Assembly (NCBI GenBank): GCA_045594665.1
Contig: JAZNYX010000062.1
Location: forward strand, 98,460-162,459
DNA length: 64,000 nt
Direction of reading: 5' to 3'
From: Clostridia bacterium
GTDB taxonomy: Bacteria; Bacillota; Clostridia; UMGS1883
Shown: in pieces, positions 7,019 to 58,175 of the stretch
Position numbering within the stretch: position 1 is the stretch's first letter
Layout: each line of letters begins with the position of its first letter
Notes under the pieces: generated by a model
Databases searched by the model: none
What the model was told of the DNA's origin: nothing
What the model saw: the letters and a program-made list of their open reading frames with translations, nothing else
Program-made: the position numbers and the translations under genes

Positions 7019-7154
7019 AGTGCAGAATTCACGAACTGAACCCTTTAGGGCTTGCCCGAAGGCGTACGTGGGTACGTCGAGGGTGAAGTTCGTGGATAGC
7101 AAAACGCATAAAATGCAAAAGGAATCCGCAAAAACGGATTCCTTCCTTGCATTT
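7019..7154 (+). ncRNA. family-1 structured element, copy A (~85-nt three-stem core plus terminator hairpin); candidate small RNA or ribozyme-like repeat
   Basis: Core cagaaTTCACGAACtgaa-[ccctttaggg]-cttgCCCGAAGG-[cgtacgtgggtacg]-tCGAGGGTGAAG-TTCGTG-gaTAGCAAAACG, followed by hairpin aaggaatccgcaaaaacggattcctt + cattttt. Four further copies show compensatory base changes in all three stems. Confidence 0.55.
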
Positions 7155-7246
7155 TAACAGTCGCTTTGTTACGACACTTGATAAAAGGCACATTTCTATT
7201 ATTTTTTTCGCGTTTTGCGGTCGGTGCTGCTTTAGCACATTTTCCT

Positions 7247-7705
7247 TTAATACATGGAGTTTTTTTGCATATAGTCATAAAGCTGCTTTCCATGCTCCTG
7301 CTCTTCCTTTTGTATATGATTTATCTGCTGCCTTATATTATCATCCTTAAACTCAAACACGCAGGTATCATATAAATGGCTTGCGTGCTTTTCCGTGGTA
7401 AGAAGGTCCTGTGCAAGATAAGCGTCCTGCTTTTTTTCCTCCGTTTCTGCCGCACCGTAGCACTCGGTAAAGGTGGGCTTTTGCTGACTCTGGCTTCCTC
7501 CTGAAGAAGATGCAGGCGTCTGCCCGTTTTCAATTTTGGTCAAAGTATCAAGATGCCCCTGCTCTACCTGTGCGATGTGAATGCAGAGCTGTTTAAGCTG
7601 TGGGTCATGGGCATACTCTGCCGCCTTTGTATACTTTTCAATACAAAGCTTCTCCGTGTCCTTCATGTCCTTTAATAAATCTTTTTCCTTTTGGGATAAC
7701 TGCAT
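7247..7705 (-). CDS. spore coat protein F-like / ferritin-like domain protein
   Basis: 152 aa; DLLKDMKDTEKLCIEKYTKAAEYAHDPQLKQLCIHIAQVEQGH resembles the CotF (Coat_F) helical repeat. Two EQGH/EQEH half-sites. Confidence 0.45.
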   Translation of the reverse strand: MQLSQKEKDLLKDMKDTEKLCIEKYTKAAEYAHDPQLKQLCIHIAQVEQGHLDTLTKIENGQTPASSSGGSQSQQKPTFTECYGAAETEEKKQDAYLAQDLLTTEKHASHLYDTCVFEFKDDNIRQQINHIQKEEQEHGKQLYDYMQKNSMY

Positions 7706-7747
7706 AAAAAATCACCTCACAGGTATTTTTTACCTGCGAGGCGGTTT

Positions 7748-10018
7748 TTATTCAAATAATTTCTTAAAGCTGTAAGTTATGGAATTACTTGTAATTTGGA
7801 AAGACAGCCGACATGCATTTTTTATTGAATGAAAAATGCTGTCCTCTTGCCTTGGGTCTGCCACGGTAATATAACGGACACCGTCCGCAATACGGCAGAA
7901 ATTCTCCTCTCCGCCCGAAATTACAAACACATTCTTTTCCACAGCTCCCTCGGAAAGAAGGCTGTGAAACGCCTTGCGGTCAATATCCGATACAAAGCCC
8001 ACGGCTTCATCGGATATAATAAATATATTATCCACAGCACTCTTTAGTGCCTCGGCAAGCTTTTGCCATTGCTCCCCTCGGGAGAATTTGCCCTTGTCCT
8101 GCTTTATTGTAATAACCTTGGAGTTAAAAATATCTCTTTCCCCAAAGGAATCTGTCTTTATTAAACTAAGGCTGTCGGGAGTCAGATCCTCGGGCTTATC
8201 CCCTCCTATAATAACGGAGGCATCCGCCTTTTTCAGTACGTTCATATTATGAGCGTAGGCGGCTCTGTCAAAGAGGGTGTTTACTTTTGAAGAAGCATAG
8301 ATGTCAAACACAAAGCCTGCATCGGACTGCTGTGCCAAGGGGTCTTTCGTAATAGGCTTTTCAGCGTCAATTTCATAATCTCCGCAAATAACCTCAATGC
8401 TTCTTTGAGCATTCCCGTGTATCAGCTTGATTTCACTTGCACCCTCGCTCAGAGCTTTTACCGACCCGTCAAGACTAAGAGACACCAATTTTGAATCAAA
8501 TTTTGGCTGAAGCAGGGTTAAATCCCTGACAACCGCTGTTTTTCCCTGCTTATCAAAAACCTTTATCTGCCCCTCGCCCTTGTAGCTTTCGCCTTTTTTT
8601 AGTGTTATCTCCTTGGGGGCAATAATACCGCTGGCCTCACTTATCATGCTGACGGTGCAGCTATCGGTCTTTTTGCCGCCGCAGTATACGTCGATTACGG
8701 CAGTTTCATTTCCTTGCGGATAGAAGATATTATCCTTTATGCTGCCCTTTCCTTCCGACACGACAAGCTTTATTTTCTCAGTGCCTTTTGAGGGCTTATT
8801 ATAGTTTTTATCATAGGGGGTAACTGTGAGCTTTACGCTGTCCCCCGTTAAAACATAATCATTCTCCGCCTCTATGAAAGCCCCTACAGCCTCGCCGCTT
8901 TTTGCACTGCTCACAATTGCAGGGGCGTTTATCACCTTTCGGTTTTCTATGGGGCTGTTTAGAAAACCGAGGCTATCGTCCTTAAGGGTTTTTCCCACCA
9001 TTTGGGTAGAGCCGCCTCCGTCAAGGTTCAGGGCATTTACGCACCCCAAATCAAGGCATATATCGGCAAGCTCACTAAGAGATACGCCGCGGCTTTCGTT
9101 TTGTCTGCCGTCAACGGTAATAAAATAAACCACCGTTCCGTCCTCGTTTGTTCCCACAACACTTCTCGGGTTATTCCCTGCCACGTTATGGGTAATCTCT
9201 GTTTTTTTGCCGTCCTTTAAAAGAAGCGTACCCCCTCCGAATGCAGTTTCCACATTTTCGATTGAGGGTGTAAATTCAATTTTTGTTTTAACAGCGTCCC
9301 CAAGGTTAAATTTATATTCCAGAAACGGGGTCATATTATCGTCAATTACCAAAATGTACCCATCCTTGGGAATGGGAATGCTCCCCCCCAGACTTACGCC
9401 CTTTGCCGTCACAACATCGTCCGTAACGGTAACTGCCGTGATGCCCTCAGGGAGAAAGGGCGAAGTGCCTGCGTTAAATTCGGGAGTGTACATAAGCACA
9501 GCCCCGTAATAATCGGTGGGTTTATTAATATGTGCTATGGGCATTTTTGTGCCATCGGGTGCTTCTACCTCGCCTTGATAGGTAAGATATGAAAACGAAA
9601 GCACGCTTTCACTTAAAAATCCTGCCGCCATATCTGTATTTATGTGGGACTGCAAAAGCTCCCCGTCCTTAACCTCGATTCCCAAAGAGAAATTCTGGTC
9701 GCCTTTATATGCGGAGAAAAAGTCCCCGTTTATGGCAACAACCGTGTTTTCCTCTTTTTGCGCAAGGTCTTTTACGGTGGCGGTCTTATCACTACCGCCA
9801 CTGTGCTTTAAAAGCTCAAAGCTCAGATTTTCATTTTTCAGATCGGCTGTTACGCAGTTTATATTAAGTGCATAAGAGCCGAAAAATTGCTGCTTCCTCG
9901 TAAGGGTAACACCGCCTGTCACAACCTCTTCCTCCGTGGAAGAATAAAGGGGCGCCCCCGATGCCGAGGCACAAACGTATATAATAAACGCCATAAAAAA
10001 TGCAGTTATTCTTTTCAA
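7748..10018 (-). CDS. secreted phosphodiester glycosidase family protein (NAGPA/DUF2233-like) with Ig-like (Big_2) region
   Basis: 756 aa with an N-terminal signal peptide and the ALNLDGGGSTQM motif typical of the phosphodiester glycosidase domain. Confidence 0.55.
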   Translation of the reverse strand: MKRITAFFMAFIIYVCASASGAPLYSSTEEEVVTGGVTLTRKQQFFGSYALNINCVTADLKNENLSFELLKHSGGSDKTATVKDLAQKEENTVVAINGDFFSAYKGDQNFSLGIEVKDGELLQSHINTDMAAGFLSESVLSFSYLTYQGEVEAPDGTKMPIAHINKPTDYYGAVLMYTPEFNAGTSPFLPEGITAVTVTDDVVTAKGVSLGGSIPIPKDGYILVIDDNMTPFLEYKFNLGDAVKTKIEFTPSIENVETAFGGGTLLLKDGKKTEITHNVAGNNPRSVVGTNEDGTVVYFITVDGRQNESRGVSLSELADICLDLGCVNALNLDGGGSTQMVGKTLKDDSLGFLNSPIENRKVINAPAIVSSAKSGEAVGAFIEAENDYVLTGDSVKLTVTPYDKNYNKPSKGTEKIKLVVSEGKGSIKDNIFYPQGNETAVIDVYCGGKKTDSCTVSMISEASGIIAPKEITLKKGESYKGEGQIKVFDKQGKTAVVRDLTLLQPKFDSKLVSLSLDGSVKALSEGASEIKLIHGNAQRSIEVICGDYEIDAEKPITKDPLAQQSDAGFVFDIYASSKVNTLFDRAAYAHNMNVLKKADASVIIGGDKPEDLTPDSLSLIKTDSFGERDIFNSKVITIKQDKGKFSRGEQWQKLAEALKSAVDNIFIISDEAVGFVSDIDRKAFHSLLSEGAVEKNVFVISGGEENFCRIADGVRYITVADPRQEDSIFHSIKNACRLSFQITSNSITYSFKKLFE

Positions 10019-10070
10019 TTAAATCCCTCCTTTGCTGTGCTTTGTAATAGAAAAGGGGGTTTGCCGAAAA

Positions 10071-10328
10071 TCAGCGGCGAAACATTTCCTCGGGAAGAAC
10101 ACGGATTGCTACATTAAGCTCATTTCCAACTTTTTCAAGCTCTGCCGTAAGCTCCTCCATGCTAAGAGCACTCTTTTCCATATCCACAAGAGCAATCATG
10201 GTAAAGAGATTTTGCATCAGCTTTTGTGAAATATCGAGAATATTGATGTTCTTTTCATAAAAAAGTCCGCTGACTCTTGCAATGATACCCGTCTTATCTT
10301 TTCCTACTACCGTTACTACTGCACGCAT
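10071..10328 (-). CDS. ACT domain-containing protein (UPF0237 family)
   Basis: 85 aa; MRAVVTVVGKDKTGIIARVSG... βαββαβ ACT pattern. Confidence 0.7.
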   Translation of the reverse strand: MRAVVTVVGKDKTGIIARVSGLFYEKNINILDISQKLMQNLFTMIALVDMEKSALSMEELTAELEKVGNELNVAIRVLPEEMFRR

Positions 10329-10341
10329 TTTAATTACTCCT

Positions 10342-11076
10342 TTATAATGAATTTTGCCTTACTGCTTCATAGATAAACAGAGCCGCCGCCACAGAGGCAT
10401 TAAGGGAATTAACGTCGCCTTTCATGGGAATTTTTACCTTGAAATCGCATTTTTCCAGAACAAGGCGGCTGATTCCCTCGCCCTCGGAGCCTATTACAAT
10501 TGCCACAGCTCCTTTAAGGTCGGCATCATAAATATTCTTGTCGCCCGAAGCATCTGCACCGCTTACCCAAATGTTTTTCTTTTTCAAATCGTCAATGGTT
10601 TTTGCAAGGCTTGTTACCCTTGCCACGGGGGTATACTCCACCGCACCTGCACTTGCCTTGGCACAAACGGCGGTAAGCGTTGCCGAATCATGCTTGGAAA
10701 TAATGATTCCGTGTACGCCTGCACAGTTTGCCGTTCTTATAATTGAGCCTAAATTTCGGGGGTCTGCTATGCGGTCAAGAATTACGATAAAGGGAGGCTC
10801 CCCTTTTTCCTCGGCACGCTTTAAAATATCATCAACGGTTGCATATTCTGCCATGGCACACTGGGCGATAACCCCCTGATGTGCCCCCGTAAGGCTCATT
10901 TCGTCAAGTTTCTTTCCGTCTGTTTCCGTAACGGTAATGCCCTTTTCCTTTGCCATGCGGATAATGGGAATTATGCTTCCGTGTCTGTCGCCCTTTTTCA
11001 CATATATTTTATCTATGCTCCTGCCGCTTTTAAGTGCTTCCGCCACAGGATTTCTGCCCTCTATTTTATCATTCAT
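10342..11076 (-). CDS. rlmB: 23S rRNA (guanosine-2'-O)-methyltransferase RlmB (SpoU/TrmH family)
   Basis: 244 aa; N-terminal L30e-like substrate-binding domain plus SPOUT methyltransferase motifs (LDRIADPRNLGSIIRTA..., VIGSEGEGIS). Confidence 0.85.
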   Translation of the reverse strand: MNDKIEGRNPVAEALKSGRSIDKIYVKKGDRHGSIIPIIRMAKEKGITVTETDGKKLDEMSLTGAHQGVIAQCAMAEYATVDDILKRAEEKGEPPFIVILDRIADPRNLGSIIRTANCAGVHGIIISKHDSATLTAVCAKASAGAVEYTPVARVTSLAKTIDDLKKKNIWVSGADASGDKNIYDADLKGAVAIVIGSEGEGISRLVLEKCDFKVKIPMKGDVNSLNASVAAALFIYEAVRQNSL

Positions 11077-11170
11077 GCGGATTCCTCCTTTTTCTACTGC
11101 TTCATTATATCACAACATATGAAAAATTCTATAATTGTAACACAAATTTATTATTCCTTATTCTACCTTA

Positions 11171-11442
11171 GCCGACGGGAAGTCGAACCCCACACGGTTT
11201 TAAGAGGTGAATTTTCCCCAATAGTGCGTTAAAATCCTTGAAAATACGAAAGTATTATCTGCGGATTTTGCCTTCTCTTGAGAAAAATTCATCCTCTTAA
11301 AACTTCTGCGAACCCTGACGTAGGAAAATTTTCATAAGACGGATGCGAAAGTCGCAGATGGGCTGTCGCCCTTCAAGACTGACAAATTCGTATTATGGGA
11401 ATTTAACAAGTCAGAGCGTATGGGGTTCGGCTACCCGTCGGC
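11171..11442 (+). repeat. family-2 long palindromic structured element, copy 1, with a ~190-nt internal insertion
   Basis: Outer arms gccgacggg-aa-gtcgaacccca ... tggggttcggct-a-cccgtcggc. Shares a core (cacggttttaaRaggtga ... gacaaRttcgtattatgggaattta...gtcagRgcgtatgg) with 17937-18036. The arms differ in sequence between copies but stay complementary. Confidence 0.5.
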
Positions 11443-13497: not shown

Positions 13498-13502
13498 GCT
13501 AC

Positions 13503-13754
13503 TTATTTTATCTCCTGCTCAAGATTATCAAAAAGGTTGGAAGCAAAAAAATCTCTTATATGAAGATTTAATCCGTCACAAATTTTCTTTATTGTAGAAA
13601 TTGTGGCTGAATTATTTCTGCCTCCCACTATATTGCTCAGCGTTGATTGCGTTATTCCGCATATGGTTGCAAGCTTGTTTACAGTAATATTCTTTTCCTT
13701 GCAAAGTTCAAGAATTCTTAGCTTAACTGCTGTTCCGATACTCAAAACAATCAC
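13503..13754 (-). CDS. XRE-family helix-turn-helix transcriptional regulator (small)
   Basis: 83 aa; HTH (ITVNKLATICGITQSTLSNI). C-terminal FDNLEQEIK is shared with the adjacent paralogue. Confidence 0.7.
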   Translation of the reverse strand: MIVLSIGTAVKLRILELCKEKNITVNKLATICGITQSTLSNIVGGRNNSATISTIKKICDGLNLHIRDFFASNLFDNLEQEIK

Positions 13755-13766
13755 CTCAAAAAAGTT

Positions 13767-14009: not shown

Positions 14010-14167
14010 TCCGCTTCACCTCATGGATATTGTATGCGTTTTTACGTTCATGCGTATACGCCCGTGCGTAATTAAGGGCGTTTTTTATGAATAAAAATTG
14101 AATTTTCCATGGGAACATTGGGTCGGTGCTGCTTTATCACATTCCGTCGCCAAGGGGAATCAAAAAT

Positions 14168-14300
14168 GGTGCAGAACGTACAAACGGAAGTCCGCAGGAC
14201 GTCCCGAAGCTGTACATAGGTACAGCGAGAGGTGACGTTTGTGCGTAGCAAAACGCATAAAATGCGAAAGGAATCCGCTCACGGATTCCTTCCTCAAACA
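14168..14300 (+). ncRNA. family-1 structured element, copy C
   Basis: cagaaCGTACAAACGgaa-[gtccgcaggac]-gtCCCGAAGC-[ctgtacataggtacag]-CGAGAGGTGACG-TTTGTGCG-TAGCAAAACG. All three stems carry compensatory changes relative to copy A, including a U-G wobble in the outer stem that fixes the strand. Followed by hairpin ggaatccgctcacggattcc. Confidence 0.55.
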
Positions 14301-14390
14301 ATTCAACGCACTTTGTAAATTTAATTTATTAATAGCACTTCCACTATATATTTTGCGTTTTGCGATCAGTGCCGTTTTTCATTCCCCGCC

Positions 14391-15602
14391 TCAGTCAGCA
14401 AGGTTGAATTTACTGTGTATCGCCCTAACTGCGTTTTCCGCATCCTTTCTGTCAATAAGAACGCTTACGCGGATTTCGCTTGTGGAAATCATCTGAATAT
14501 TGATTCCTGCATCATAAAGAGCCTCAAACATTGTTGCGGCAACACCGGGGTTAGATGTCATACCTGCACCTACGATAGAAATCTTTGATACGTTTTCATC
14601 GTGAATAACCTTCTCGGCACGGATAATTGCATTATTTTCATTGATTACGTTAAGTGCTGTTTCAAGGTCACCTGCACCTACGGTGAAGCTGATATCCTTG
14701 CTTCCGTCACGTCCGATTGACTGAAGAATAATATCAACATTTACTTTCTTCTTTGCTAAAAGCGAGAATATCTGAAATGCCTTTCCGGGCTTATCATCAA
14801 TATTTACAAGAGCAATTCTTGCAACATCATTATCACGGGCAATACCTCTGATTAACATCTTTTCCACTGTGTTTTCCTCCTTAACAATAGTGCCGGGCAC
14901 TTTTTCAAAGCTTGACAGCACTTCCATATTTACATTAAATTTCTTTGCAAGCTCCACGCTTCTGTTATGAAGCACGTTTGCACCTGCACTTGCCAGTTCC
15001 AGCATTTCGTCGTAAGTAATTTCGTTAAGCTTTCTTGCTTCGGGCACGATTCTGGGGTCGGTTGTATACACGCCTGTTACATCGGTGAATATCTGACAAA
15101 GGTCAGCACCCAAAGCCGCCGCAAGAGCAACTGCCGAGGTATCGGAGCCGCCTCGTCCGAGGGTTGTAATATCATCAAACTTATTAATACCCTGGAAGCC
15201 TGCCACGATAACGATTTTCTTTTTATCAAGCTCCAGATGAACTCTCTCGCCGATAATACGCTTAATGCGTGCCTTTGAATAATTGCTGTCGGTATTTACA
15301 CCTGCCTGCCAGCCTGTAAGGGAAACAACGGGTCTGCCCAGCTTTTCAATAGCCATTGCAAGAAGGGACATTGAAATCTGCTCACCTGCCGAGAGAAGAA
15401 CGTCCATTTCTCTTTTTGACGCGTTTTTGTTGATTTCTGCCGCTTTTTCCAGCAAATCATCTGTAGTATCGCCCTGTGCGGAAACTACTACCACAACGTC
15501 GTTACCCTCGTCGTAAGTTTCCACAATACGGCCTGCTACGCGGAAAACTCTTTCCGCATTGGCAACACTGCTGCCGCCGAATTTCTGTACTATTAAACCC
15601 AC
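14391..15602 (-). CDS. lysC: aspartate kinase
   Basis: 403 aa; KFGGSSV N-terminal motif, amino-acid kinase fold and tandem C-terminal ACT domains. Confidence 0.9.
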   Translation of the reverse strand: MGLIVQKFGGSSVANAERVFRVAGRIVETYDEGNDVVVVVSAQGDTTDDLLEKAAEINKNASKREMDVLLSAGEQISMSLLAMAIEKLGRPVVSLTGWQAGVNTDSNYSKARIKRIIGERVHLELDKKKIVIVAGFQGINKFDDITTLGRGGSDTSAVALAAALGADLCQIFTDVTGVYTTDPRIVPEARKLNEITYDEMLELASAGANVLHNRSVELAKKFNVNMEVLSSFEKVPGTIVKEENTVEKMLIRGIARDNDVARIALVNIDDKPGKAFQIFSLLAKKKVNVDIILQSIGRDGSKDISFTVGAGDLETALNVINENNAIIRAEKVIHDENVSKISIVGAGMTSNPGVAATMFEALYDAGINIQMISTSEIRVSVLIDRKDAENAVRAIHSKFNLAD

Positions 15603-15631
15603 TATAATTACCTCCTTGGGATTAGCTTAGC

Positions 15632-16834: not shown

Positions 16835-16848
16835 TTGTATACCTTCCT

Positions 16849-36196: not shown

Positions 36197-36964
36197 ATGA
36201 ATTACAGTGAAATAACAGACAATTCTTCAATTTATTATCTTTATGACGGGAGCTTTGACGGGCTTTTAACTGTGGTGTATCAGGCAGTTTATTCCCGGAT
36301 AACTCCCTGTGGGATAGGCACGGAGAAAAACCTCCAGCTTAGCTTTGGCACCCGTTACGCAGAGGTAATTACAAACAAAAATTATGCACGCAGGGTGTAC
36401 AGTGCACTTTATAAAAAAATAGGCTCTTTCGGGCTTCGCCGCATTTACTACATTTTTTTAAGCAACGACAGCCAAAAGGACCTCATTATATACAAATATA
36501 TGATGCTGGGCTTTAAAAACGGACAAAAGACCAATTCAGCTCTTTCCGACGATACAGTTTCCGCCGCATTTCAGATTGCACAGAATGTTTCACGTGAAAC
36601 AGAGAAATATCGTCAGTTCACACGGTTTAGCGTTATGGATTGGGGTGTTCAATATGCCAAGATAACTCCTCAAAACAACCTTCTGCCTGTTCTTACCCCG
36701 TTTTTTATACAGCGGCTTAAGGTTATTCCCTTTGTTCTGCACGATGCCACGCATAACCTTTGTGCCGTCTATGACACCAAGGACTGGCATGTTTCCTCCA
36801 GCGAGGGGCTAACTTCGCCCTCTAAAAGCACCCGTGAAGAAGATGTGGAAAAGCTTTGGAAAACCTTTTTTGATGCCATCGCCATAAAAGAAAGATACAA
36901 CACCAAGCTTCAAAAACAAAACATGCCGTCGGTGTACTTCAAAAGCGTATGGAGCATAAGATAA
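36197..36964 (+). CDS. DUF4130 probable DNA-metabolism protein (TIGR03915-like partner of the radical SAM enzyme)
   Basis: 256 aa, YLYDGSFDGLLTVVYQA... Conserved partner of TIGR03916 radical-SAM proteins. AAAGGGG ribosome-binding site before the ATG at 36197. Confidence 0.6.
   Translation: MNYSEITDNSSIYYLYDGSFDGLLTVVYQAVYSRITPCGIGTEKNLQLSFGTRYAEVITNKNYARRVYSALYKKIGSFGLRRIYYIFLSNDSQKDLIIYKYMMLGFKNGQKTNSALSDDTVSAAFQIAQNVSRETEKYRQFTRFSVMDWGVQYAKITPQNNLLPVLTPFFIQRLKVIPFVLHDATHNLCAVYDTKDWHVSSSEGLTSPSKSTREEDVEKLWKTFFDAIAIKERYNTKLQKQNMPSVYFKSVWSIR
36586..36601. promoter_or_regulatory. parS centromere-like site (perfect TGTTTCACGTGAAACA) inside the DUF4130 gene
   Basis: Exact 16-bp palindromic consensus. 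Confidence 0.85.
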
Positions 36965-37056
36965 ATGGGGATGTAAAAAAACTCCAGACCGCAAAAAGGC
37001 AACTAAAATACAAAATACAGATGTCTTAATAATTAAAGAATCCAATATTATTGTTG

Positions 37057-37180
37057 AAAAACCGTATAACTACGGTTTTTCTTCGTTTGAAGCCTTTTTG
37101 CTACGAACAAACTTCACCTCTCGCTGTATACACATACAGCTTCGGGCAAGCCCCTTCGGGGTTCAGTTTGTCCGTTCTGG
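37057..37180 (-). ncRNA. family-1 structured element, copy E (minus strand)
   Basis: Minus-strand reading cagaaCGGACAAACtgaa-[ccccgaagggg]-cttgCCCGAAGC-[ctgtatgtgtatacag]-CGAGAGGTGAAG-TTTGTTCG-TAGCAAAAAGgct, followed by hairpin aaaaaccgtagttatacggttttt. Confidence 0.55.
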
Positions 37181-37206
37181 AGCCTTTTTTCCTATCCCCA
37201 ACAAAA

Positions 37207-37241
37207 AGAGGTGTAAAAAAGTCAGACTTTTTTACACCTCT
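37207..37241. terminator. bidirectional terminator; terminates serS on the minus strand
   Basis: agaggtgtaaaaaagtc-agac-ttttttacacctct with T runs on both sides. Confidence 0.65.
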
Positions 37242-37252
37242 TTTTATTTTTT

Positions 37253-45408: not shown

Positions 45409-45527
45409 CTAAAAAATAAGAGGCAAAAGTATACTTCTCATAAGATTTTATCTTATAAGAAAGACCTTTCACCTCTTTCTTTCTTTATTTATTTGATTTT
45501 AATCACAATCCGAAAAGGCTCAAAAGT

Positions 45528-45648
45528 AGTACAGAATTCGCGAACAGAACCCTTTAGGGCTTGCCCGAAGGCGTACGTTGGTACGTCGAGGGTGAAGTTC
45601 GTGGATAGCAAAACGATTAAATTCAGAAATTCGCAATAGCGAATTTCT
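45528..45648 (+). ncRNA. family-1 structured element, copy B
   Basis: Nearly identical to copy A (cagaaTTCGCGAACagaa-[ccctttaggg]-cttgCCCGAAGG-[cgtacgttggtacg]-tCGAGGGTGAAG-TTCGTG-gaTAGCAAAACG), then hairpin gaaattcgcaatagcgaatttc. Confidence 0.55.
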
Positions 45649-45745
45649 TCATTAAACTATAAAAGTTTATTTGTAAACCTTTCAAAGAAAATCACTAAAC
45701 ATTTTTTCTTTTTCGTTTTGCGGTCTGTGCTGCTTTTCAGGCTTT

Positions 45746-46438
45746 TTACACGCCTTCAAGTTCGTTCTCTTTACGGTTATATCTGTACTTTGAAACGTAT
45801 CCTTCACCGTATTCTCTCTTTTTCGTTGTAATTACAACAGAGCGGTTGGGGTCTTTTCCCGTTGAATAAGTAGTTACGTTTCTGTATTCCTGAAGTGCAG
45901 AATGAATAATTCTTCTTTCGTTGGGGTTCATGGGATCAAGCGTTATGCTCTTTCTTGTTCTTGCCACAATGCCTGCCATTCTCTTTGCAAGCTTTATAAG
46001 AGTTTCTTCTCTTTTTCCGCGGTAATTTTCCGTATCGATAGTAACTCTGATGTAATTTTCCTCACCCTTATTTACAACCAAGGATGTGAGATACTGGAGG
46101 GCATCGAGAGTATCGCCTCTTCTTCCGATAACCTTTCCTACTTCCTCGCTGTCGCCGATGATTTCAATATTTACTGTTTCATCCTCATAAGAAGCCTTAA
46201 TTTCTACATCAATACCAAAACTTCCCATTACGCTTTTAACGTACTTTTCAGCTTTACTTAAAGGGGTTTCCTCCATTTTAACCCTTACCTTTGCTTCTTC
46301 GGAGCCGATTCCTAAAATACCGCGCTTTCCCTCGTTAATAACTTCGATTTCTACTTCTTCTTTTGTTACTCCGAGTTCTATAAGCGCCGCATTTACTGCA
46401 TCATCAATTGTTTTTGCGCTTTTTTCTATTATTATCAT
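45746..46438 (-). CDS. jag: Jag/SpoIIIJ-associated RNA-binding protein (KH and R3H domains)
   Basis: 230 aa in the conserved position downstream of yidC. Confidence 0.85.
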   Translation of the reverse strand: MIIIEKSAKTIDDAVNAALIELGVTKEEVEIEVINEGKRGILGIGSEEAKVRVKMEETPLSKAEKYVKSVMGSFGIDVEIKASYEDETVNIEIIGDSEEVGKVIGRRGDTLDALQYLTSLVVNKGEENYIRVTIDTENYRGKREETLIKLAKRMAGIVARTRKSITLDPMNPNERRIIHSALQEYRNVTTYSTGKDPNRSVVITTKKREYGEGYVSKYRYNRKENELEGV

Positions 46439-48430: not shown

Positions 48431-48452
48431 TTTTTTGAAGGAATGTTTACTT

Positions 48453-49875: not shown

Positions 49876-49951
49876 TAAACCTTACTACTGTTACTCTATT
49901 ATTTAATATTATTATATATTATATATTCGGTCTGAAAGGATGAAATAAAAA

Positions 49952-51052: not shown

Positions 51053-51063
51053 GAGGTAAAAAA

Positions 51064-52346: not shown

Positions 52347-52348
52347 AA

Positions 52349-52621
52349 ATGTTTATTCATATTGGAGAGGGAAAAGTTTTAAGAAAAAAAGAAATAGTTG
52401 GAATCTTTGATCTGGAAAACACGTCGGTAAGCAAAAAAACAAGAGAATTTCTCCGCAAAAGCGAAAAAGAAAAAAAAGTTGAGTACTTAGGGGAAGAAAT
52501 TCCAAGGACATATGTGGTAACAAAGTCGAAAGAGAAAAAGAGTGTTTATATGACGCAGATTTCTGTACAGACACTTATTAAAAGAGCAGAAAGGAATGAG
52601 TCTATTGGAACAGAAAGTTAA
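52349..52621 (+). CDS. DUF370 protein (RemB/YaaB-like) between recF and gyrB
   Basis: 90 aa, conserved syntenic small protein. Confidence 0.7.
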
Positions 52622-54542
52622 TAATTCATATGACGAAACCCAAATTCAGGTATTGGAGGGTCTTGAAGCCGTAAGAAAAAGACCCGGTATGTACATCGGT
52701 TCTACATCTGCAAGGGGTCTTCATCACCTTGTTTACGAAATAGTGGACAACAGTATAGATGAAGCATTGGCAGGATACTGTACGCAAATCGATGTTACAA
52801 TAAATGAGGACAATTCAATTACCGTAAAGGATAACGGACGAGGTATGCCCCACGGTATTCATCCGAAAATGGGAATTTCCACAATAGACGTTATTTTTAC
52901 GGTGCTTCATGCGGGCGGAAAGTTCGGCGGCGGCGGATATAAGGTTTCGGGCGGTCTTCACGGCGTTGGTGCTTCTGTTGTAAATGCTCTTTCCACAAAG
53001 CTTGAGGTAGAGGTACACGACGGTGAAAATATATGGTTCCAGAGCTATAAGAGAGGTGTTCCCGACGGAGAAGTTCATACTATAGGAAAAACCGACAGAA
53101 CGGGTACACAGGTTACTTTCTGGGCGGACGGAGAAATTTTTGAGGAAACTGTTTACGATTATGATATTCTTCTTAAAAGGCTTCGTGAACAGGCATTCTT
53201 AAACGGCGGTATAAAAATTATTTTCAAGGATGAAAGAGAAGAAAAGAGAGAGGAAATTCTTCATTACGACGGAGGTATAAAGAACTTCGTTTCTTATCTT
53301 CTTGACGATAAAAAGAGCAGAAAAGATACACTTTCCGAGATTCATCCCGAGGTAATATATGTAAGCGGAGAGAAAAACGGCTCTATGGCAGAGGTTGCTC
53401 TTCAGTGGAATAACGGGTATGATGAAGTAATTGAGTCTTTTGCAAATAATATTTCAACAACCGAGGGCGGTACTCACGAAACAGGCTTTAAAGCGGCTCT
53501 TACAAAGGTACTTGTTGAATACGGAAAAAAATATAAAATAATAAAGGATAATGAGGAGCTAACGGGTGAGGACGCAAGAGAAGGTCTTATAGCCGTAATT
53601 TCCGTAAAGCTTGAAGAACCTCAGTTTGAGGGACAAACCAAGACAAAGCTCGGAAACAGCGAAATACGCGGACTTGTGGAAAACATGCTCCGTGAAAAGC
53701 TTGCAGATTTTCTTGAGGAAAATCCCGTTGTCGGTAAAACGATAATTGAAAAAGCCCTTATGGCATCCCGTGCGAGAATTGCGGCAAGAAAGGCACGTGA
53801 AGCAAACAGAAAAACGCCATTGGGTTCAAGCAGCCTTCCCGGTAAGCTTACCGACTGTATCGTAAAAGACCCCACAATGACGGAAATTTATATCGTCGAG
53901 GGTGATAGTGCCGGAGGCAGTGCTAAAAGCGGCCGTGACAGTAAATATCAGGCAATTCTTCCTCTCTGGGGTAAGATGCTTAATGTTGAAAAGGCGAGAG
54001 AGGACAAGGTATACGGAAACGATAAGCTCACTCCCGTAATCCAAGCATTGGGAACAGGTATAGGAGCAGAATTCAATATTGAAAAGCTCCGTTACGATAA
54101 GGTTATTATAATGGCCGATGCCGACGTTGACGGTGCTCATATTCAGACGCTTCTTCTTACATTCTTCTTCAGATTCATGCGTGAACTTGTGGAACAAGGT
54201 CATATATACCTTGCAAAACCTCCGCTTTATAAGGTTTCAAGAGGAAAGAGAAGTCAGGTGGCATTCAGTGATGAAGAAAGAGATAAAATAAGTGAAGAAC
54301 TTAAAAACGGTGATTTAAATGCAAAGGTTGATATAAGCCGTTACAAAGGTCTTGGTGAAATGGACCCCGACGAGCTCTGGGAAACAACAATGGATCCAAA
54401 GAGCAGAATTCTTCTCAAGGTTACATTGGAGGATGCACAAAAAGCTGACGAAATATTCAGTATTCTCATGGGCGATGAGGTAGAGCCGAGACGCCAATTT
54501 ATTGAAGAAAATGCACAGTACGTTACCAATTTGGATGTATAA
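52596..54542 (+). CDS. gyrB: DNA gyrase subunit B
   Basis: GHKL ATPase motifs, Toprim (EGDSAGG), [13 protein letters not shown]-like region. Confidence 0.95.
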
Positions 54543-54724
54543 CATCCTTTCGAAGCGAAAAGTTTCTTTCGAAAATATTTCGCTTCGAGTAAGGGGCTTT
54601 CGCTCGCGCACCGCTCACCGCGGTAGCCCCTGCAAGGAGTCAAAAACGAGGTTCACGCCCCCGTTTTTGACAAATTTAATTGTCAAGGGGTAAACCCCTT
54701 AACAAACCCCACATTCTATGGGGA
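54533..54724 (-). repeat. ~180-bp hairpin-rich element, copy 2 (gyrB-gyrA spacer); inverted partner of 43885-44063
   Basis: Reverse complement aligns with copy 1 at ~92% identity; most differences fall in loops. Its first hairpin (ggatgtataacatcc) contains the gyrB stop codon. Confidence 0.7.
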
Positions 54725-54743
54725 GCGAAAGGAAATAAATGAT

Positions 54744-57269
54744 ATGGCTAAGAACAAAAAATACGAAGATTCCCATTTTGAGGAATATTTTGATACACAA
54801 ACCATTGTTGATATAGACATTGAAAAAAGAATGAAGGAGGCATTTATTGATTACGCTATGAGCGTTATCGTAAGCCGTGCACTCCCCGACGTGCGTGACG
54901 GTTTAAAGCCCGTTCACAGAAGAATTCTTTATTCAATGTATGAAGAAAATCTTACTCACGACAAGCCTTTCTTCAAATCGGCTACAACCGTAGGTAATGT
55001 TATCGGTAGGTATCACCCCCATGGTGATGCTTCGGTTTACGATGCACTTGTAAGAATGGCGCAGGATTTCTCTATGCGTTATCCGCTTATAGAAGGTCAC
55101 GGAAACTTTGGTAGCGTGGACGGAGACCCGCCTGCTGCATACCGTTACACGGAAGCAAGAATGAGCAAGCTTTCAAATGTTCTTCTCGAAAATATTGAAA
55201 AGGACACTGTTGATTTTGCTCCCAACTTTGATGAAAAGAGAAAGGAGCCTACCATTCTTCCCACAAGAATCCCTACACTTTTGGTTAACGGAAGCAGCGG
55301 TATTGCCGTTGGTATGGCTACAAATATTCCCCCTCACAACCTTACGGAAGTTCTTAATGGTGCAATGGCACAGATTGATAATCCCGATATAACCGTAGAG
55401 GAGCTTATGGAGCATATTCAGGGTCCCGACTTCCCCACAAGCGGTACAATTATGGGCAGAAGCGGTATCAGAAGTGCGTACAACACCGGCAGAGGAAAGG
55501 TTGTAATCCGTGCAAAGGCTGATATTGAAGAGCATAAGGATGGAACAAGCTCTATTATAGTTACACAGCTTCCTTATCAGGTTAATAAAAAAATGCTGGT
55601 TGAATCCATTGCGGCACTTGTTAAGGATAAGAAGATTGAAGGTCTTTCTGACATAGATGACCATTCTTCAGACCGTGTCGGTATACGTCTTGAAATTTTC
55701 TTAAAGAGAGATGCAAACCCCCACGTTGTACTTAATCAGCTTTATAAATATACAAGGCTTCAGGACAGTTTCAGTATAAACTTACTCGCAATTTGTGACG
55801 GTAAGCCCAAAACAATGGGTCTTAAAGAGGTTCTTGATAATTTCATCAACTTCCAGAAAGAAATAGTTACACGCCGTACAAAATATGACCTTGCAAAAGC
55901 AGAAGCAAGAATGCATATATTGGAAGGCCTCCGCATTGCACTTGCAAATATTGATGAAGTTATTGAAGTAATCAGAAATTCCTATGATGATGCTAAGGAA
56001 AATCTGATGGCTCGCTTCGGACTTTCCGAAATTCAGGCACAGAGCGTTCTTGATATGCGTCTGGCACAGCTCCAGAAACTGAACGGCGAAAAGATTGACG
56101 AAGAATTTAACGAGCTTACACTCAGAGTGGAGCAGTTTAAGGCACTTCTTGCCGATGAGCATCTTCTTATGGAGCAGATTAAGAAGGAGCTTACAGAAAT
56201 CCGCGATAAATTCGGTGATGAAAGAAAGACAGCCATTGAAAATGTAATGACTGAAATTGATATAGAGGACCTTATTGAAGAGGAAGAAAGTGTATATACC
56301 CTTACAAACAGCGGATATATAAAGAGAATCCCTGCCTCCACATACCAGAGCCAGCACCGAGGCGGCAAGGGAATCAAGGGTATGGGAACAAAGGAAGAGG
56401 ACTTTGTAGAAAGCATTATTGTGGCATCAACCCATGACCACATGCTGTTCTTCTCCTCAAAGGGCAGAATGTACAGAATGAAGGGTTATCAGATTCCCGA
56501 AGCAAGCCGTCAGGCAAAGGGAAGCGCTATTGTAAACCTTCTTCCCATTGAAAAGGACGAAAAGATAACTGCCGTAATTGCACTTCGCGAGTTTGAGGAT
56601 GATAAGTATCTTCTTATGTGTACAAGAAACGGCGTTATAAAGAAAACTGCCGTAACAGATTATGATACCTCAAGAAAAGGCGGTATTATAGGTATTTCCC
56701 TTGATGAGGGCGACGAGCTTATTAAGGTTGAGCTTACAAACGGTGAAAATGAAGTAATCGTAGGTACCTATAACGGTATGGCAATCAGGTTCAATGAGAA
56801 AGATGTACGCTCCATGGGCAGAGTAACAAGAGGCGTTAAAGCCATTACCCTCCGCGGTGACGACTATATTATAGGAATGTGCCTTGCAACAGAGGATACA
56901 CAGCTTCTTGCCGTAACGGAAAACGGCTACGGAAAGAGAACCGAGCTTTCCGAATACCGTGTGCAGAGCCGCGGCGGCGTAGGTATAAAGACCTATAAGT
57001 GCAGCGAAATAACGGGTAACGTAATAGGAATAAGATCCGTAAAGGACGGAGAAGATATTATTATGATTACCTCTGAGGGAATAATTATAAGGATTCCCGC
57101 AAGCGGTATAAGCACCATAGGAAGAAGTACAAAGGGTGTAAGACTGATGCGACTAAATGACGGCGTAAAGGTTGTTTCCATGGGCATTACCGAGCATGAG
57201 GAAGAAGAGGAAGAAGCAGAGGAAACAGACGCACAGCTCCCCGAGGAAAATGAATCTATAGAGGAATAA
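54744..57269 (+). CDS. gyrA: DNA gyrase subunit A
   Basis: Active-site region (AAMRYTE-like ...[11 protein letters not shown]), β-pinwheel C-terminal domain, acidic tail. Confidence 0.95.
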
Positions 57270-57272
57270 ATT

Positions 57273-57977
57273 ATGAATAATAAAGATAATGAAGAAACCA
57301 TGATTTTTACTCCTGTAGAGAAACAGGCGGATTCAGATGAAAATGCCTTGGAATTTAACGATGATTACATTGAAGAAGAGCTTATGAATAAAGAAGAACC
57401 CGTGGAAAAGGGAAATAAAGCTCTTATATACACTCTTGTGATTCTTTGTATTCTTCTTGTTATTGCAATAAGTGCAGTATTTCTGCTTTTAAGCACAAGC
57501 AGCCGGGAAAAAAACGAAAACCAAAATCAGGGCGGAGATATAATTTTGGAGGAAAAAGAGCCTTCCGAAGAAAAAGAAGAAGAGGAAGAAGCGGTAGAAA
57601 TTATCTCCTGCAGTATTGTTTTTTACGGCGAGAGTGCGGTGGAAAGTGACGAAGGCTATGTAATTACCGCAAAAGTAACCGATAATAAAACACAAAGGCA
57701 GAAAAAAAAGCATCTTTTGATAGATGACGATACGGAAATCAGAATCAATGGAAAAAGAGTGGCACCGGATTCCTTTATATATCTTCTGGAAGAAAAAAAT
57801 GAGGAAGCCTTGGTCTTTGATTCAAAGGTTGATGAGGAAAATGAGTATATAACCTATATTTCATTTGACGGCGATCTGAGCGAAAAAGAAGAAGAGGAAG
57901 AAGAACCTCCCGCAGAAGAAACTGAGGAAAATCCCGAAGAAGAGGAAATTATAGAGGGAATTAATTTACAAGAATAA
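57273..57977 (+). CDS. hypothetical single-pass membrane protein with highly acidic low-complexity segments
   Basis: 234 aa, one transmembrane helix (LIYTLVILCILLVIAISAVFLLL), E-rich repeats. Confidence 0.4.
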   Translation: MNNKDNEETMIFTPVEKQADSDENALEFNDDYIEEELMNKEEPVEKGNKALIYTLVILCILLVIAISAVFLLLSTSSREKNENQNQGGDIILEEKEPSEEKEEEEEAVEIISCSIVFYGESAVESDEGYVITAKVTDNKTQRQKKKHLLIDDDTEIRINGKRVAPDSFIYLLEEKNEEALVFDSKVDEENEYITYISFDGDLSEKEEEEEEPPAEETEENPEEEEIIEGINLQE

Positions 57978-57978
57978 A

Positions 57979-58020
57979 AGAAGGATGTACCTAATTAAAG
58001 GTACATCCTTCTTTTTATTT
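57979..58020 (+). terminator. rho-independent terminator
   Basis: aaggatgtacctaattaaaggtacatcctt + ctttttattttt. Confidence 0.65.
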
Positions 58021-58043
58021 TTAGGGGATCGGAAAAAATGATT

Positions 58044-58175
58044 CAGAACGGACAAACTGAGCCACGGCTTGCCGTGGGTTACCCGAAGGCGTACGTGGGT
58101 ACGTCGAGAGGCGAAGTTTGTTCGTAGCAAAAAGGCTTAAAAAACATCGAAAAATCGAAAAAATGAGATTTTTCA
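58044..58175 (+). ncRNA. family-1 structured element, copy D
   Basis: cagaaCGGACAAACtgag-[ccacggcttgccgtgg]-gttaCCCGAAGG-[cgtacgtgggtacg]-tCGAGAGGCGAAG-TTTGTTCG-TAGCAAAAAGgctt, then hairpin gaaaaatc..gatttttc. Confidence 0.55.

Follow-up and report, generated by a model that had tools for sequence, protein, structure and literature searches.

A candidate class of structured, Y-shaped palindromic repeats interspersed at gene ends in gut Clostridia

On balance, the five intergenic motifs in the window (the whole 64,000-nucleotide stretch of Clostridia bacterium DNA analysed here) are probably the conserved cores of a larger non-coding, non-autonomous interspersed palindromic repeat of about 235–245 bp, whose fold would be under selection, most likely as RNA. 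The repeat is best read as a new, structured member of the MITE/REPIN/ERIC class. Each motif of about 100 nt forms one branch of a Y-shaped imperfect palindrome of about 235–245 nt, with its parts in the order leader, core, arm, T2 hairpin, spacer, arm', trailer. The closing stem of the Y is formed by pairing of the 5' leader with the 3' trailer. In the second branch the 10–12 nt directly after the core (the arm) pair with a segment about 90 nt downstream (arm'), and this helix of 10–12 bp encloses the terminator-like hairpin T2 and an AT-rich spacer. The copies in the window and their parts were as follows.

7002..7245, plus strand: copy A, whole element; the full-length fold is the Y (MFE −99.4 kcal/mol, z −7.3); the trailer ends 1 nt before the TAA (7247–7249, minus strand) of a CotF-domain gene
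7027..7097, plus strand: copy A, core (covariance-model match 7016–7109, 108 bits)
7119..7144, plus strand: copy A, internal hairpin T2, terminator-like on both strands, with the better tail on the minus strand, the direction of the abutting gene
7210..7245, plus strand: copy A, arm' (7210–7218, complementary to the arm at 7099–7107) and trailer (7219–7245, complementary to the leader at 7002–7026)
6965..7001, plus strand: orphan half-element (arm' and trailer) immediately preceding copy A, detected with the trailer profile in nhmmer (E 2e-4) and of the same form as the half-site in locus L126
14154..14387, plus strand: copy B, whole element (MFE −87.6, z −6.1); the trailer ends 3 nt before the TGA (14391–14393, minus strand) of aspartokinase
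14176..14246, plus strand: copy B, core (match 14165–14258, 97 bits)
14354..14387, plus strand: copy B, arm' and trailer (pairing and trailer-profile search)
36967..37199, minus strand: copy C, whole element (MFE −94.9, z −7.6), abutting the TAA (36962–36964) of a DUF4130 gene
37103..37175, minus strand: copy C, core (match 37091–37186, 103 bits)
37056..37081, minus strand: copy C, internal hairpin T2, terminator-like on the plus strand only, the direction of the abutting DUF4130 gene
36967..37000, minus strand: copy C, arm' (36991–37000) and trailer
37203..37245, no strand assigned: T1, the pre-existing serS/DUF4130 terminator hairpin beside the copy C leader; its orthologue in L155 is the single hairpin of the empty site there
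45512..45747, plus strand: copy D, whole element (MFE −88.6, z −11.1), antisense in the jag–mnmE spacer; the trailer overlaps the TAA of jag (45746–45748)
45536..45606, plus strand: copy D, core (match 45525–45618, 103 bits)
45713..45747, plus strand: copy D, arm' and trailer (pairing and trailer-profile search)
45412..45490, minus strand: jag's own long terminator hairpin and U-run on the leader side of copy D (fold z −6.2), invariant in 7 related loci
58024..58263, plus strand: copy E, whole element (MFE −79.4, z −5.4), ending 1 nt before the TAA (58265–58267, minus strand) of DAHP synthase
58048..58125, plus strand: copy E, core (match 58037–58137, 102 bits)
58230..58263, plus strand: copy E, arm' and trailer (pairing and trailer-profile search)
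57976..58015, no strand assigned: T1, shared bidirectional terminator beside the copy E leader, terminator-like on both strands and also found at empty sites

On inspection of the window sequence all five motif copies lay where the first-pass annotation had placed them. A covariance model built from the five scored 97–108 bits on these copies, and with filters off nothing else in the 64 kb exceeded 13 bits; a second model, from an alignment of 110 copies (the window copies and loci in MAGs), gave 81–102 bits on the same five, with the next best match at 15. The layout described earlier, CAGAA-P1-uGAr-P2-CCCGAAG-P3-CGAGrGGyGAmG-P1'-TAGCAAAA, was correct in the alignment, as were the quoted variants of P1, P2 and P3, and the multi-copy family with a conserved fold is real. 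The joiners are indeed invariant among the window copies; beyond the window their invariance is partly an artefact of construction because the MAG copies were fetched using a pattern demanding CCCGAAG and CGAG.GGYGAMGTT, which leaves stem covariation unaffected. No counterpart was found in Rfam 15, searched with the whole window at gathering thresholds and with the surroundings of copy A at E≤10, in keeping with the earlier failure to match the motif to hammerhead, twister, group II domain V or a riboswitch consensus.

The compensatory changes proposed for P1, P2 and P3 were borne out as strong covariation in the 110 copies. In the core 97.5% of cells were paired, double changes were seen at 17 of 24 pairs, and 308 compensatory cells were counted against 72 ± 19 in shuffles, while slid controls of the core stems gave only 32–44% pairing. 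The earlier strand assignment was confirmed, since G-U is the commonest state at two core pairs (63 and 51 sequences). One joiner required correction: the purine that follows CUGA is base-paired, its partner being the Y of GGYGA (AU 52, GC 47). The most likely partner of the CC(C) in CCCGAAG is the GG of GAGnGG, and with both pairings the core would be a rod carrying two tandem G.A motifs. The core measures 70–115 nt and comprises an 11-bp P1, the two tandem G.A motifs, P3, and P2 as an optional side branch (missing in about 12 copies); in copy A the order is P1, tandem G.A, R:Y, P2, CCC/GG, tandem G.A, P3, P1'. An RTAG motif stands 3' of P1'. Identity between window copies is 75% in the core, 46% in T2 plus spacer and about 32% in the flanks.

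The hairpin following the core had been described as an independent terminator-like hairpin; it lies instead inside the second branch of the larger element, the outer helices of which covary. Pair counting gave 97.6% pairing in the arm helix, with double changes at 10 of 10 pairs, and 79.9% in the inner closing stem, with double changes at 7 of 9. There are 45 distinct arm sequences, every one complementary to its own partner; arm 10-mers match their own arm' at 9.75 of 10 positions, whereas arms taken from other subfamilies reach 6.6, and arm' never lies beyond about 115 nt. Mismatches of the G-U type outnumbered those of the A-C type both in leader/trailer (193 vs 55) and in the arm (23 vs 5). 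Folding energy favours the sense over the antisense strand in all 81 of 81 copies (−82.5 vs −72.0 kcal/mol), and the MFE structure of the full-length sense strand gives back the Y shape.

The position of the element relative to genes is regular. In 55 of 81 copies a gene on the opposite strand has its stop codon next to the trailer end; this convergent stop falls 13–36 nt from the arm' end with a peak at 22–32, the trailer end. The abutting stop is TAA in 47 of 56 cases (84%), compared with 337 of 715 (47%) in the background. The leader begins directly after the terminator T-run of another gene in 51 of 80 copies. Comparison of three window loci with relatives showed that the element separates the stop codon of a gene from the terminator belonging to that gene, and that it lies antisense to the gene. 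The earlier statement that copies sit between convergent genes holds for C and E only; A, B and D are antisense to both neighbours, which run in the same direction on the minus strand. All five window copies are antisense to the abutting gene, and to the left of dnaA they occur on both strands (A, B and D plus, C minus), independent of the direction of replication. Simple terminator criteria are satisfied by T2 in 37 of 78 copies in the gene direction and in 25 of 78 in the element direction, and judged on its sequence T2 often looks able to terminate the abutting gene. Terminator-like hairpins bound the structured part on both sides, T1 beside the leader and T2 within the element, and would keep its transcription low from either direction, a point against the favoured reading.

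Besides the five in the window, at least 105 copies were found in MAG loci of uncultured gut Clostridia (Acutalibacteraceae, Oscillospiraceae, Congzhengia and unclassified "Clostridia bacterium" MAGs), and two further copies in one phage contig with terminase, portal and capsid genes. MAG copies are often at contig ends, and tandem and half copies occur. Filled or empty orthologous sites were seen among close relatives at three window loci. The DAHP-synthase site is filled in the window and empty in L159–L161 and L163 (four assemblies) at 94–95% protein identity, with flanks otherwise identical and the empty sites free of any remnant. The DUF4130/serS site, filled in the window by copy C, is empty in the relatives L152, L154 and L155. 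The jag site is filled in the window, L120, L124, L125 and L127, half-deleted in L126 and empty in L128. L126 and L125 encode an identical Jag protein, and the difference between them has ragged ends and looks like deletion rather than clean excision. The left junction of the jag-site copy is common to lineages with Jag proteins only 85% identical; there the core is kept, the arms differ and P2 is absent. These sequence comparisons show that the element is gained and lost between close relatives and that internal deletions reduce it to half-sites. The copies showed no target-site duplication. The genes neighbouring about 100 copies were ordinary: no transposase or reverse transcriptase recurred among them, and none was a Y1, HUH or integrase gene. 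Neither an autonomous partner nor an enzyme that would mobilise the element was found, and there is no ORF inside the element.

Selection would act on the single-stranded fold of the strand antisense to the abutting gene. That form is most likely RNA, made by low-level read-through from the leader side, because orientation tracks the direction of the gene and not that of replication. As RNA, the core may be a platform recognised or processed by a factor encoded elsewhere, whether the enzyme responsible for the spread of the element or a protein with RNA-binding or RNase activity, and the element may act, as a by-product, as an extra terminator and insulator at gene ends. Spread could be owed partly to recombination between similar terminator palindromes instead of transposition.

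An unlikely alternative is that the element is a cis-acting gene-end module of the host that does not transpose, i.e. an elaborated bidirectional terminator or insulator or a 3'-end RNA stabiliser, spread from site to site as similar terminator palindromes recombine or undergo gene conversion, its core binding a host protein such as an RNase or termination factor. This would suit the location between stop codon and terminator at gene 3' ends, the bias of T2 toward the abutting gene, the core conserved across lineages at an orthologous site, and the lack of both target-site duplication and transposase. The outer-stem sequence GGATGT...ACATCC is also common to plain terminators at empty or neighbouring sites (L155, L156 and the T1 hairpins of the window), and between identical flanks T1 of copy E carries six paired substitutions that bring it closer to that sequence than its empty-site orthologue is. 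Against such a module, however, stand the clean filled/empty polymorphism without remnant, the copies in a phage contig, the many subfamilies with co-varying arms across several bacterial families, and the frequent tandem copies and contig-end positions typical of proliferating repeats; a core of 70–115 nt with invariant loops would be superfluous for termination.

It is distinctly unlikely that the element works at the DNA level, folding in single-stranded DNA and being recognised by an HUH/Y1 transposase, as REPIN/RAYT or IS200/IS605-derived elements are, or by a folded-single-strand recombinase, as are integron attC sites. The missing target-site duplication, the strand-specific structure with G.T-type mismatches and the pocket shielded by terminators on either side are all consistent with it. 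The RTAG after P1' loosely resembles the GTAG that stands next to E. coli REPs. Integron attC sites are imperfect palindromes with variable terminal structure that lie directly after a stop codon and fold on the strand antisense to that gene, and in position and strand, though only in these, the element is similar. However, it stands beside scattered chromosomal housekeeping genes without cassette arrays or an integrase, and the R'/R'' core-site consensus was not noticed in it by eye. Orientation in the window ignores replication and is in all five copies antisense to the abutting gene, Y1, HUH and integrase genes are absent near about 100 copies, and the hairpin sites of known transposases or recombinases are smaller and simpler than the core, whose two tandem G.A motifs and three-way junction are more typical of RNA.

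The first-pass annotation had proposed a discrete small-RNA gene of about 120–150 nt, but the core is embedded in a palindrome of about 240 nt with no fixed promoter and a dispersed-repeat distribution, and a free-standing small-RNA gene is not supported. It is very unlikely that the motifs form a family of small RNA or self-cleaving ribozyme genes, each with its own promoter and an RNA ending at the post-core hairpin that acts in trans or cleaves itself: a conserved fold, invariant unpaired bases, tandem G.A motifs and, after the arm, a hairpin with a T-run (passing terminator criteria in the element direction in the 25 copies noted above) would fit, and the lack of an Rfam match would make such an RNA new, but no sigma-70-type promoter was found at any fixed position on either strand in 81 copies (scores were no better than in shuffles), none was called upstream of copies C and E, the leader often follows another gene's T-run, and the core matches none of the known self-cleaving ribozyme classes. 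In addition, arm' and trailer, beyond the hairpin, covary with sequence before and after the core, which a transcript ending at the hairpin would not need.

As an interspersed palindromic repeat, the element resembles REP/BIME and REPIN sequences (with RAYT transposases; mainly Proteobacteria), which are likewise high-copy, non-coding extragenic palindromes at gene 3' ends, often tandem or clustered, without target-site duplication and with the enzyme, if any, encoded elsewhere. REPs of 20–40 nt and REPINs of about 100 nt are simple hairpins, whereas the Clostridia element of about 240 nt has a conserved three-way-junction core that sits asymmetrically in one of its arms, and it contains a terminator-like hairpin; no RAYT was found for it, the host group is another, and we know of no sequence relation between them. 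ERIC/IRU elements of enterobacteria are also imperfect palindromes conserved across species in transcribed intergenic DNA. Compensatory change in ERIC suggests RNA-level constraint, and longer variants arise from insertions at fixed internal sites. ERIC differs in its length of about 127 bp and its phylum, and is not known to have a branched conserved core or a fixed relation to stop codons. Correia (NEMIS), RUP, BOX and bcr1 repeats and MITEs are similarly small, non-autonomous and dispersed, with inverted termini, fold as RNA and affect the transcripts of neighbouring genes. However, target duplications (TA or TTTAT) can be recognised at Correia, RUP and bcr1 repeats, which also have a cognate IS family; neither feature was found here, and none of these repeats is known to have a covarying core of 70–115 nt with invariant loops. 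Group IIC introns are comparable in target choice only, inserting beside intrinsic-terminator hairpins in a single orientation; the element has no group II domains (no Rfam match) and no reverse transcriptase, falls far short of such an intron in size, and lies on the side of the terminator that faces the stop codon. The likeness to retron msr-msd RNA is one of topology, the paired ends a1/a2 resembling leader and trailer around a conserved structured part followed by a long variable hairpin, but retrons are single-copy and followed by a reverse transcriptase, whereas the element has many copies and none nearby.

The CtsR operator reported near copy A is present, with the ctsR promoter, about 60–110 bp away, and its closeness looks incidental.

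The five intergenic copies recorded in the first-pass annotation were present and read as described there, with 78% mean column identity over the core, the conserved motif of ~70–115 nt that comprises stems P1, P2 and P3 and their joiners. The core was found to be part of a dispersed, polymorphic, non-coding palindrome of ~235–245 nt (the element), in which leader, core, arm, T2 hairpin, spacer, arm' and trailer follow in that order. One strand of the element has a selected Y-shaped fold, and the element is placed in one orientation at the junction of a stop codon and a terminator. In the window, 0–3 nt separated the trailer end of each copy from the stop codon of an opposite-strand gene.

7002–7245, plus strand: copy A, abutting the CotF-domain gene (opposite strand)
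14154–14387, plus strand: copy B, abutting the aspartokinase gene (opposite strand)
36967–37199, minus strand: copy C, abutting the DUF4130 gene (opposite strand)
45512–45747, plus strand: copy D, abutting jag (opposite strand)
58024–58263, plus strand: copy E, abutting the DAHP synthase gene (opposite strand)

A covariance model (R1) was built from the five window copies and run on the window with filters off. Copies A–E scored 97–108 bits and the rest of the 64 kb 13 bits or less. A second model (R2) of 110 sequences, from the window and from loci in metagenome-assembled genomes (MAGs), gave 81–102 bits for the five copies and 15 for the next match. The gap in both models indicates exactly five copies in the window and zero degenerate ones. 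One genome per species was then scanned with the pattern CCCGAAG-N(12–24)-CGAG-N(0–1)-GGYGAMGTT, which gave at least 119 loci, with ~95 true copies among the matches listed. Hosts among these matches were ruminant and human gut MAGs labelled Clostridia bacterium, Acutalibacteraceae, Oscillospiraceae, Congzhengia and Fimenecus; the window proteins were 82–96% identical to those of 'Clostridia bacterium' MAGs. Contig-end positions were common among the listed MAG copies, as expected of an assembly-breaking repeat, and the element is of practical interest as an abundant repeat that breaks MAG assemblies in a large uncultured branch of gut Clostridia. Tandem copies occurred at three loci (L065, L088 and L090; L-numbers designate comparison loci). 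Rearranged and nested copies are exemplified by L080 7650–7700, where one trailer runs directly into the truncated P1 start (cagattggacaaa) of a second copy and an ordinary terminator comes next.

Compensatory changes in P1, P2 and P3, first proposed from the five copies, were borne out in alignment A3, which held 110 copies from the window and from loci among the matches listed (covariance model search). Standard pairs filled 97.5% of the cells, both-sided changes were present at 17 of the 24 pairs, and compensatory cells numbered 308 vs 72 ± 19 in column shuffles. When partner columns were slid by 1–3 positions, pairing fell to 32–44%. Double changes were found at 8 pairs of P1 (11 bp) and at 5 pairs of P3; P2 changed completely in sequence and length and was absent in ~12 copies. 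The joiners CCCGAAG and CGAG.GGYGAMGTT were required by the scan pattern, so their invariance outside the window holds by construction; the only copies free of this ascertainment are four that the model recovered and the pattern did not, and small deviations in the joiners were seen there.

A pair forms between the Y of GGYGA and the purine that follows CUGA (AU 52, GC 47, GU 3, other 3), so that P1 continues through a tandem G.A/A.G into that pair. Opposite the CC of CCCGAAG lies the GG of GAGnGG, its sole partner in P2-less copies; both are invariant and therefore give no covariation signal. The CGAA/GAG(n) loop that is left can, by inspection, accommodate a C-G pair, a second tandem G.A and a bulged A. 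Because of the purine:Y pair, the CC/GG pairing and the optional P2, the core is modelled as a bent rod with P2 as an optional side branch. G-U was the most frequent state at two core pairs (63 and 51 sequences), with non-pairs rare, and this preference fixes the functional strand as the one originally named. Covariation of the base after CCCGAAG as the first pair of P3 led to rejection of a local CC-CGAA-GG mini-hairpin and, for the opposite strand, of a C(UUCG)G tetraloop. Nor is the core a canonical K-turn, both G.A tandems being (by inspection) without a 3-nt bulge.

The fold of the core is as strongly backed as that of many accepted RNA families, yet it is uncatalogued. In agreement with the earlier failure to place it, Rfam 15 gave no match in the whole window at gathering thresholds, and at E ≤ 10 on 6900–7300 only chance-level matches were obtained, none over the core. 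The families covered were riboswitches, sRNAs, hammerhead, twister, twister-sister, hatchet, pistol, HDV-like ribozymes, group I/II introns, HEARO, IS605-orfB, retron-like RNAs and others. The 64-kb window contained no tRNA (ARAGORN), no rRNA and no Rfam match of any kind. No published description of the element was found in the literature searched, including by exact sequence and in a microbiome RNA-motif supplement.

Outside the core, the 10–12 nt following P1' (TAGCAAAAAGGC and variants) find their complement 60–115 nt downstream, in a segment that always has a GGTCTG-like sequence after it. Among the 81 copies with enough flank there were 45 different arm 10-mers, and an arm paired with its own arm' at 9.75 of 10 positions vs 6.6 for partners from other subfamilies (arm/arm' examples: GCAAAAAGGC/GCCTTTTTGC, GCATAAAGCA/TGCTTTATGC, ACACAAGGCA/TGCCTTGTGT and GTTTATTGGC/GCCAATAAAC). 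The leader (~25 nt before P1, e.g. GGGGATAGGAAAAAATGATTCAGA) pairs with the trailer (~25 nt after arm', e.g. TCTGGACTTTTTTTACATCCCC). These outer helices were counted by pair-counting on an ungapped segment alignment (A7). The arm helix was 97.6% paired with double changes at 10/10 pairs, a result that is partly circular as complementarity had served to identify arm'; the closing stem's inner 9 bp, free of such selection, were 79.9% paired, 7 pairs had double changes and many were G-U (A7). Leader/trailer mismatches were of the G-U type in 193 cases vs 55 of the A-C type, and those of the arms in 23 vs 5. Folding of the full ~240 nt reproduced the Y shape. The sense strand was more stable than the antisense in 81/81 copies (mean −82.5 vs −72.0 kcal/mol), and fold z-scores of the five window copies ranged from −5.4 to −11.

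Between the arms lie a short A-rich linker, the T2 hairpin and ~55 nt of AT-rich, poorly conserved DNA. Nearly all copies have T2 downstream of the arm; an A-run lies 5' and a T-run 3' of this hairpin. The "terminator-like hairpin" previously placed after the motif is this T2; it exists, and it is internal to the larger palindrome, between arm and arm'. The part between the arms is dispensable: the arm loops straight to arm' in L102, is minimal in L070, and only leader, core and trailer are present in L048. The inverted termini (leader/trailer plus arm/arm') measure ~35–40 nt and are imperfect, the left one being interrupted by the core. Identity among the window copies was 75% in the core, 46% in T2 and spacer and ~32% in the flanks.

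A phage or plasmid origin was set aside, with no BLAST match in INPHARED or PLSDB. In some copies a reading frame is open from a leader ATG/GTG to the TAG that follows P1'; as a hidden small ORF it was rejected because P2 varies in length (0–30 nt) and a 1-nt indel occurs in CGAG(n)GG, so that the frame is not kept. No ORF lay between the arms in any copy examined among the loci listed, and an autonomous copy with such an ORF was likewise not found among them. When all ORFs of at least 120 aa from the loci were clustered and compared with Pfam, no recurrent neighbouring transposase or reverse transcriptase was seen among the clusters; the largest were AraC regulators, ABC and MatE transporters, amidohydrolase, UDG and GNAT. 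The genes between two inverted copies in L069 were ordinary.

Promoters were sought with a PWM scan of the 81 copies, in which no sigma-70-like promoter at a fixed position and no positional peak was found on either strand (mean best score 7.0 vs 7.7 in shuffles). A separate promoter-tool scan found none upstream of C or E; around copy A it returned the ctsR promoter on the other strand (11/12 matches) and three weak 9/12 plus-strand matches, none of them upstream of the core. The stand-alone small-RNA gene put forward initially is thus not borne out: no sigma-70-like promoter of their own was found in the 81 copies, the point on which the element differs from a bacterial sRNA gene, and the core is a module of a larger palindrome. 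What survives of that interpretation is a structured, novel and strand-specific family, now seen as part of a mobile-like palindromic repeat.

The same placement was seen in the wider set of copies. The right-hand neighbour was the stop of a convergent ORF, the 3' end of an ordinary gene, in 61/81 copies; in 55 of those 61 the stop lay 13–36 nt from the end of arm', with a peak at 22–32, which is the trailer end. Stops were offset by 0 to 6 nt from the end of the palindrome. Leader-side distances were broad by comparison, and the reverse arrangement (leader abutting a gene's stop) occurred in ~4 cases. The abutting stop was TAA in 47/56 cases vs 337/715 long ORFs of the same loci. On the leader side a T-run lay just upstream in 51/80 copies and a stable hairpin in 52/80. 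No consistent direct repeat flanked the 41 copies with clear ends, and no target-site duplication was found on comparing filled with empty sites; a duplication of 2–3 nt could hide in T-rich flanks. Copies lie on both strands to the left of dnaA in the window, indicating that orientation follows the abutting gene and not replication direction; a link to the replication strand was not consistent within the window. The window (1–64000) is origin-proximal, with ctsR-clpC, serS, jag, rnpA, dnaA, dnaN, gyrB and gyrA; the gene after gyrA (57273–57977, 234 aa) is without a Pfam domain, yet conserved in relatives.

The DAHP synthase site was empty in four assemblies (protein 94–95% identical), with a 50-nt spacer made up of TAA, 12 nt, one bidirectional terminator and then the stop of a convergent 233-aa gene. 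These flanks recur in the window, where the element starts 1 nt past the TAA. At the DUF4130/serS site, relatives at 89% and 77% identity had empty spacers of 60 and 43 nt. L155 had a single hairpin after the DUF4130 TAA, orthologous to T1, the pre-existing gene terminator hairpin beside the leader, at copy C. The jag-mnmE site was filled in the window, L120, L124, L125 and L127 and empty in L128. In L126, whose Jag protein is identical to that of L125, just the trailer and a portion of arm' remain, with ragged breakpoints, and this allele looks like a deletion product. Insertion into a T-tract right beside the neighbouring terminator was considered and is only partly right, because the empty sites put the element beside the stop codon, 7–12 nt from the terminator. 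All three sites fit one rule, with the element placed antisense to a gene, between its stop codon and its own terminator.

An orphan half-element, consisting of arm' and trailer, was located at 6965–7001 (plus strand) directly upstream of copy A and has the same form as the half-deleted L126 allele. It lies just upstream of the ctsR promoter (TTGACA-17-TATATT, 6945–6917, minus strand) and the CtsR-box repeats at ~6893–6915. In L123, whose Jag is identical to that of the element-carrying L124, the same jag-mnmE spacer holds an unrelated GC-rich, hairpin-rich insert of ~200 nt (JAZPYX010000097.1, 3195–3385), which may be a second kind of intergenic repeat.

On the leader side of copy D, at 45412–45490 (minus strand), a 70-nt block (AAGAAAGAGGTGAAAGGTC...CTTTTGCCTCTTATTTTTT) upstream of mnmE was invariant in seven related loci with Jag proteins only 85–96% identical. 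It folds as a long hairpin with a U-run (z −6.2), has no real Rfam match, and is probably the terminator of jag or an attenuator for mnmE. The left junction at the jag site is common to the window and L125, though their Jag proteins are only 85% identical. Between these two the core is kept while the arms differ (GCAAAACGA vs GCATTGGGC), L125 lacks P2 and the spacers cannot be aligned, a pattern that indicates long-term constraint on the fold or repeated conversion.

T2 satisfied simple terminator rules in the direction of the abutting gene in 37/78 copies and in the element's direction in 25/78; in copies A and C the terminator scan called it in the gene's direction. From these calls, T2 plausibly ends the transcript of the abutting gene, with the old terminator T1 shielding the other side. 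The element rewrites the 3' ends of ordinary genes, where it probably supplies or duplicates terminators. The outer-stem sequence GGATGT...ACATCC was common to some plain terminators (L155, L156 and two T1 hairpins of the window), and the L156 terminator also has a TIR-like loop sequence. T1 beside copy E (57976–58015), a bidirectional terminator, differed from its empty-site orthologue (L159–L161, 2340–2380) by six paired, compensatory substitutions with identical flanks (GTATACACC/GGTGTATAC -> GGATGTACC/GGTACATCC), toward the outer stem of the element. This handful of cases suggests that elements exchange sequence with, or convert, ordinary terminators, or that elements decay into terminators. 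The L155, L156 and window T1 hairpins give rise to the suggestion that many plain terminators may be collapsed copies; a profile search for short leader/trailer hairpins returned one clear half-element in the window. Terminators right after the DUF4130 stop in L156 (2268–2300) and L155 (2268–2296) look like collapsed element termini (GAAGGATGTAAAAAGTC/TACATCCTTC and GAGGATGTC-TGCA-GACATCCTC).

The fold would form in RNA made by read-through past T1 or, in cases like copies A, B and D, in RNA from a divergent promoter region. RNA is preferred over DNA because orientation is tied to the gene and not to replication, because of the G-U bias, and because of the junction; a three-way junction with tandem G.A pairs is an architecture typical of RNA. 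Some doubt attaches to the RNA reading, as the structured half sits in a pocket between two terminator-like hairpins. Since the unpaired core bases are conserved, they would be expected to contact a specific partner, which may be the machinery of the element's spread or a host factor that binds or processes RNA.

Known classes were compared in turn. A retron is not indicated, the downstream neighbour being an ordinary convergent gene (61/81) with no reverse transcriptase among recurrent neighbours. An IS200/IS605-derived (PATE) element or a TnpB/IscB scaffold is also not indicated: no tnpA, tnpB or iscB ORF adjoined the copies, the HEARO and IS605-orfB Rfam models were without a match in the window, and the element occurs on both strands on one side of dnaA. 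As regards REP/REPIN-RAYT systems, no Y1 transposase lay beside any copy examined. The element resembles a MITE in being ~240 bp long and non-coding, with five copies per 64 kb, over 100 in MAGs, and inverted termini; it differs in that no target-site duplication was seen. No cognate autonomous IS with the same termini was found in ~95 eight-kb loci or the window. Its behaviour places it with the bacterial interspersed palindromes (REP/BIME/REPIN, ERIC, Correia, BOX, RUP and bcr1). It is set apart from all of them by a large core that covaries and forms a three-way junction with invariant loops, by the terminator-like hairpin inside it, and by a precise antisense position after a mostly TAA stop.

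Were the element no more than a decorated terminator, it would still show clearly how a selfish palindrome is turned into gene-end punctuation. A more novel reading, which we regard as rather unlikely, is that core, closing stem and arm helix are the scaffold of a new non-autonomous structured mobile element. An RNA (or folded single strand) would then be recognised or processed by an enzyme encoded elsewhere and might itself be catalytic, and the element would be delivered specifically to the junction of a (mostly TAA) stop codon with the terminator of the gene. The scaffold reading, if true, would bring a new mobility or targeting mechanism, as with the orphan HEARO repeats, which turned out to be guide-RNA scaffolds. 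A core serving as a protein- or enzyme-recognition scaffold, or as a ribozyme, would define a new class of structured mobile element.

Viral sequences gave 22 pattern matches, with true copies in only one contig, the phage contig IMGVR_UViG_3300029860_000340 (L151). It carries terminase, portal and capsid genes and two full P2-less elements, both co-directional with those genes; no DNA similar to the phage-contig element was found in collections of annotated phages or plasmids. Both copies also have in common a repeat of ~120 nt (gcggctgtgtgcggtatttg...gccgcaaaacggc) that precedes them, at 2850–2960 and 7590–7700 of L151, and downstream of one copy lies a near-consensus promoter (TTTACA-17-TATAAT) for the phage gene that comes next.
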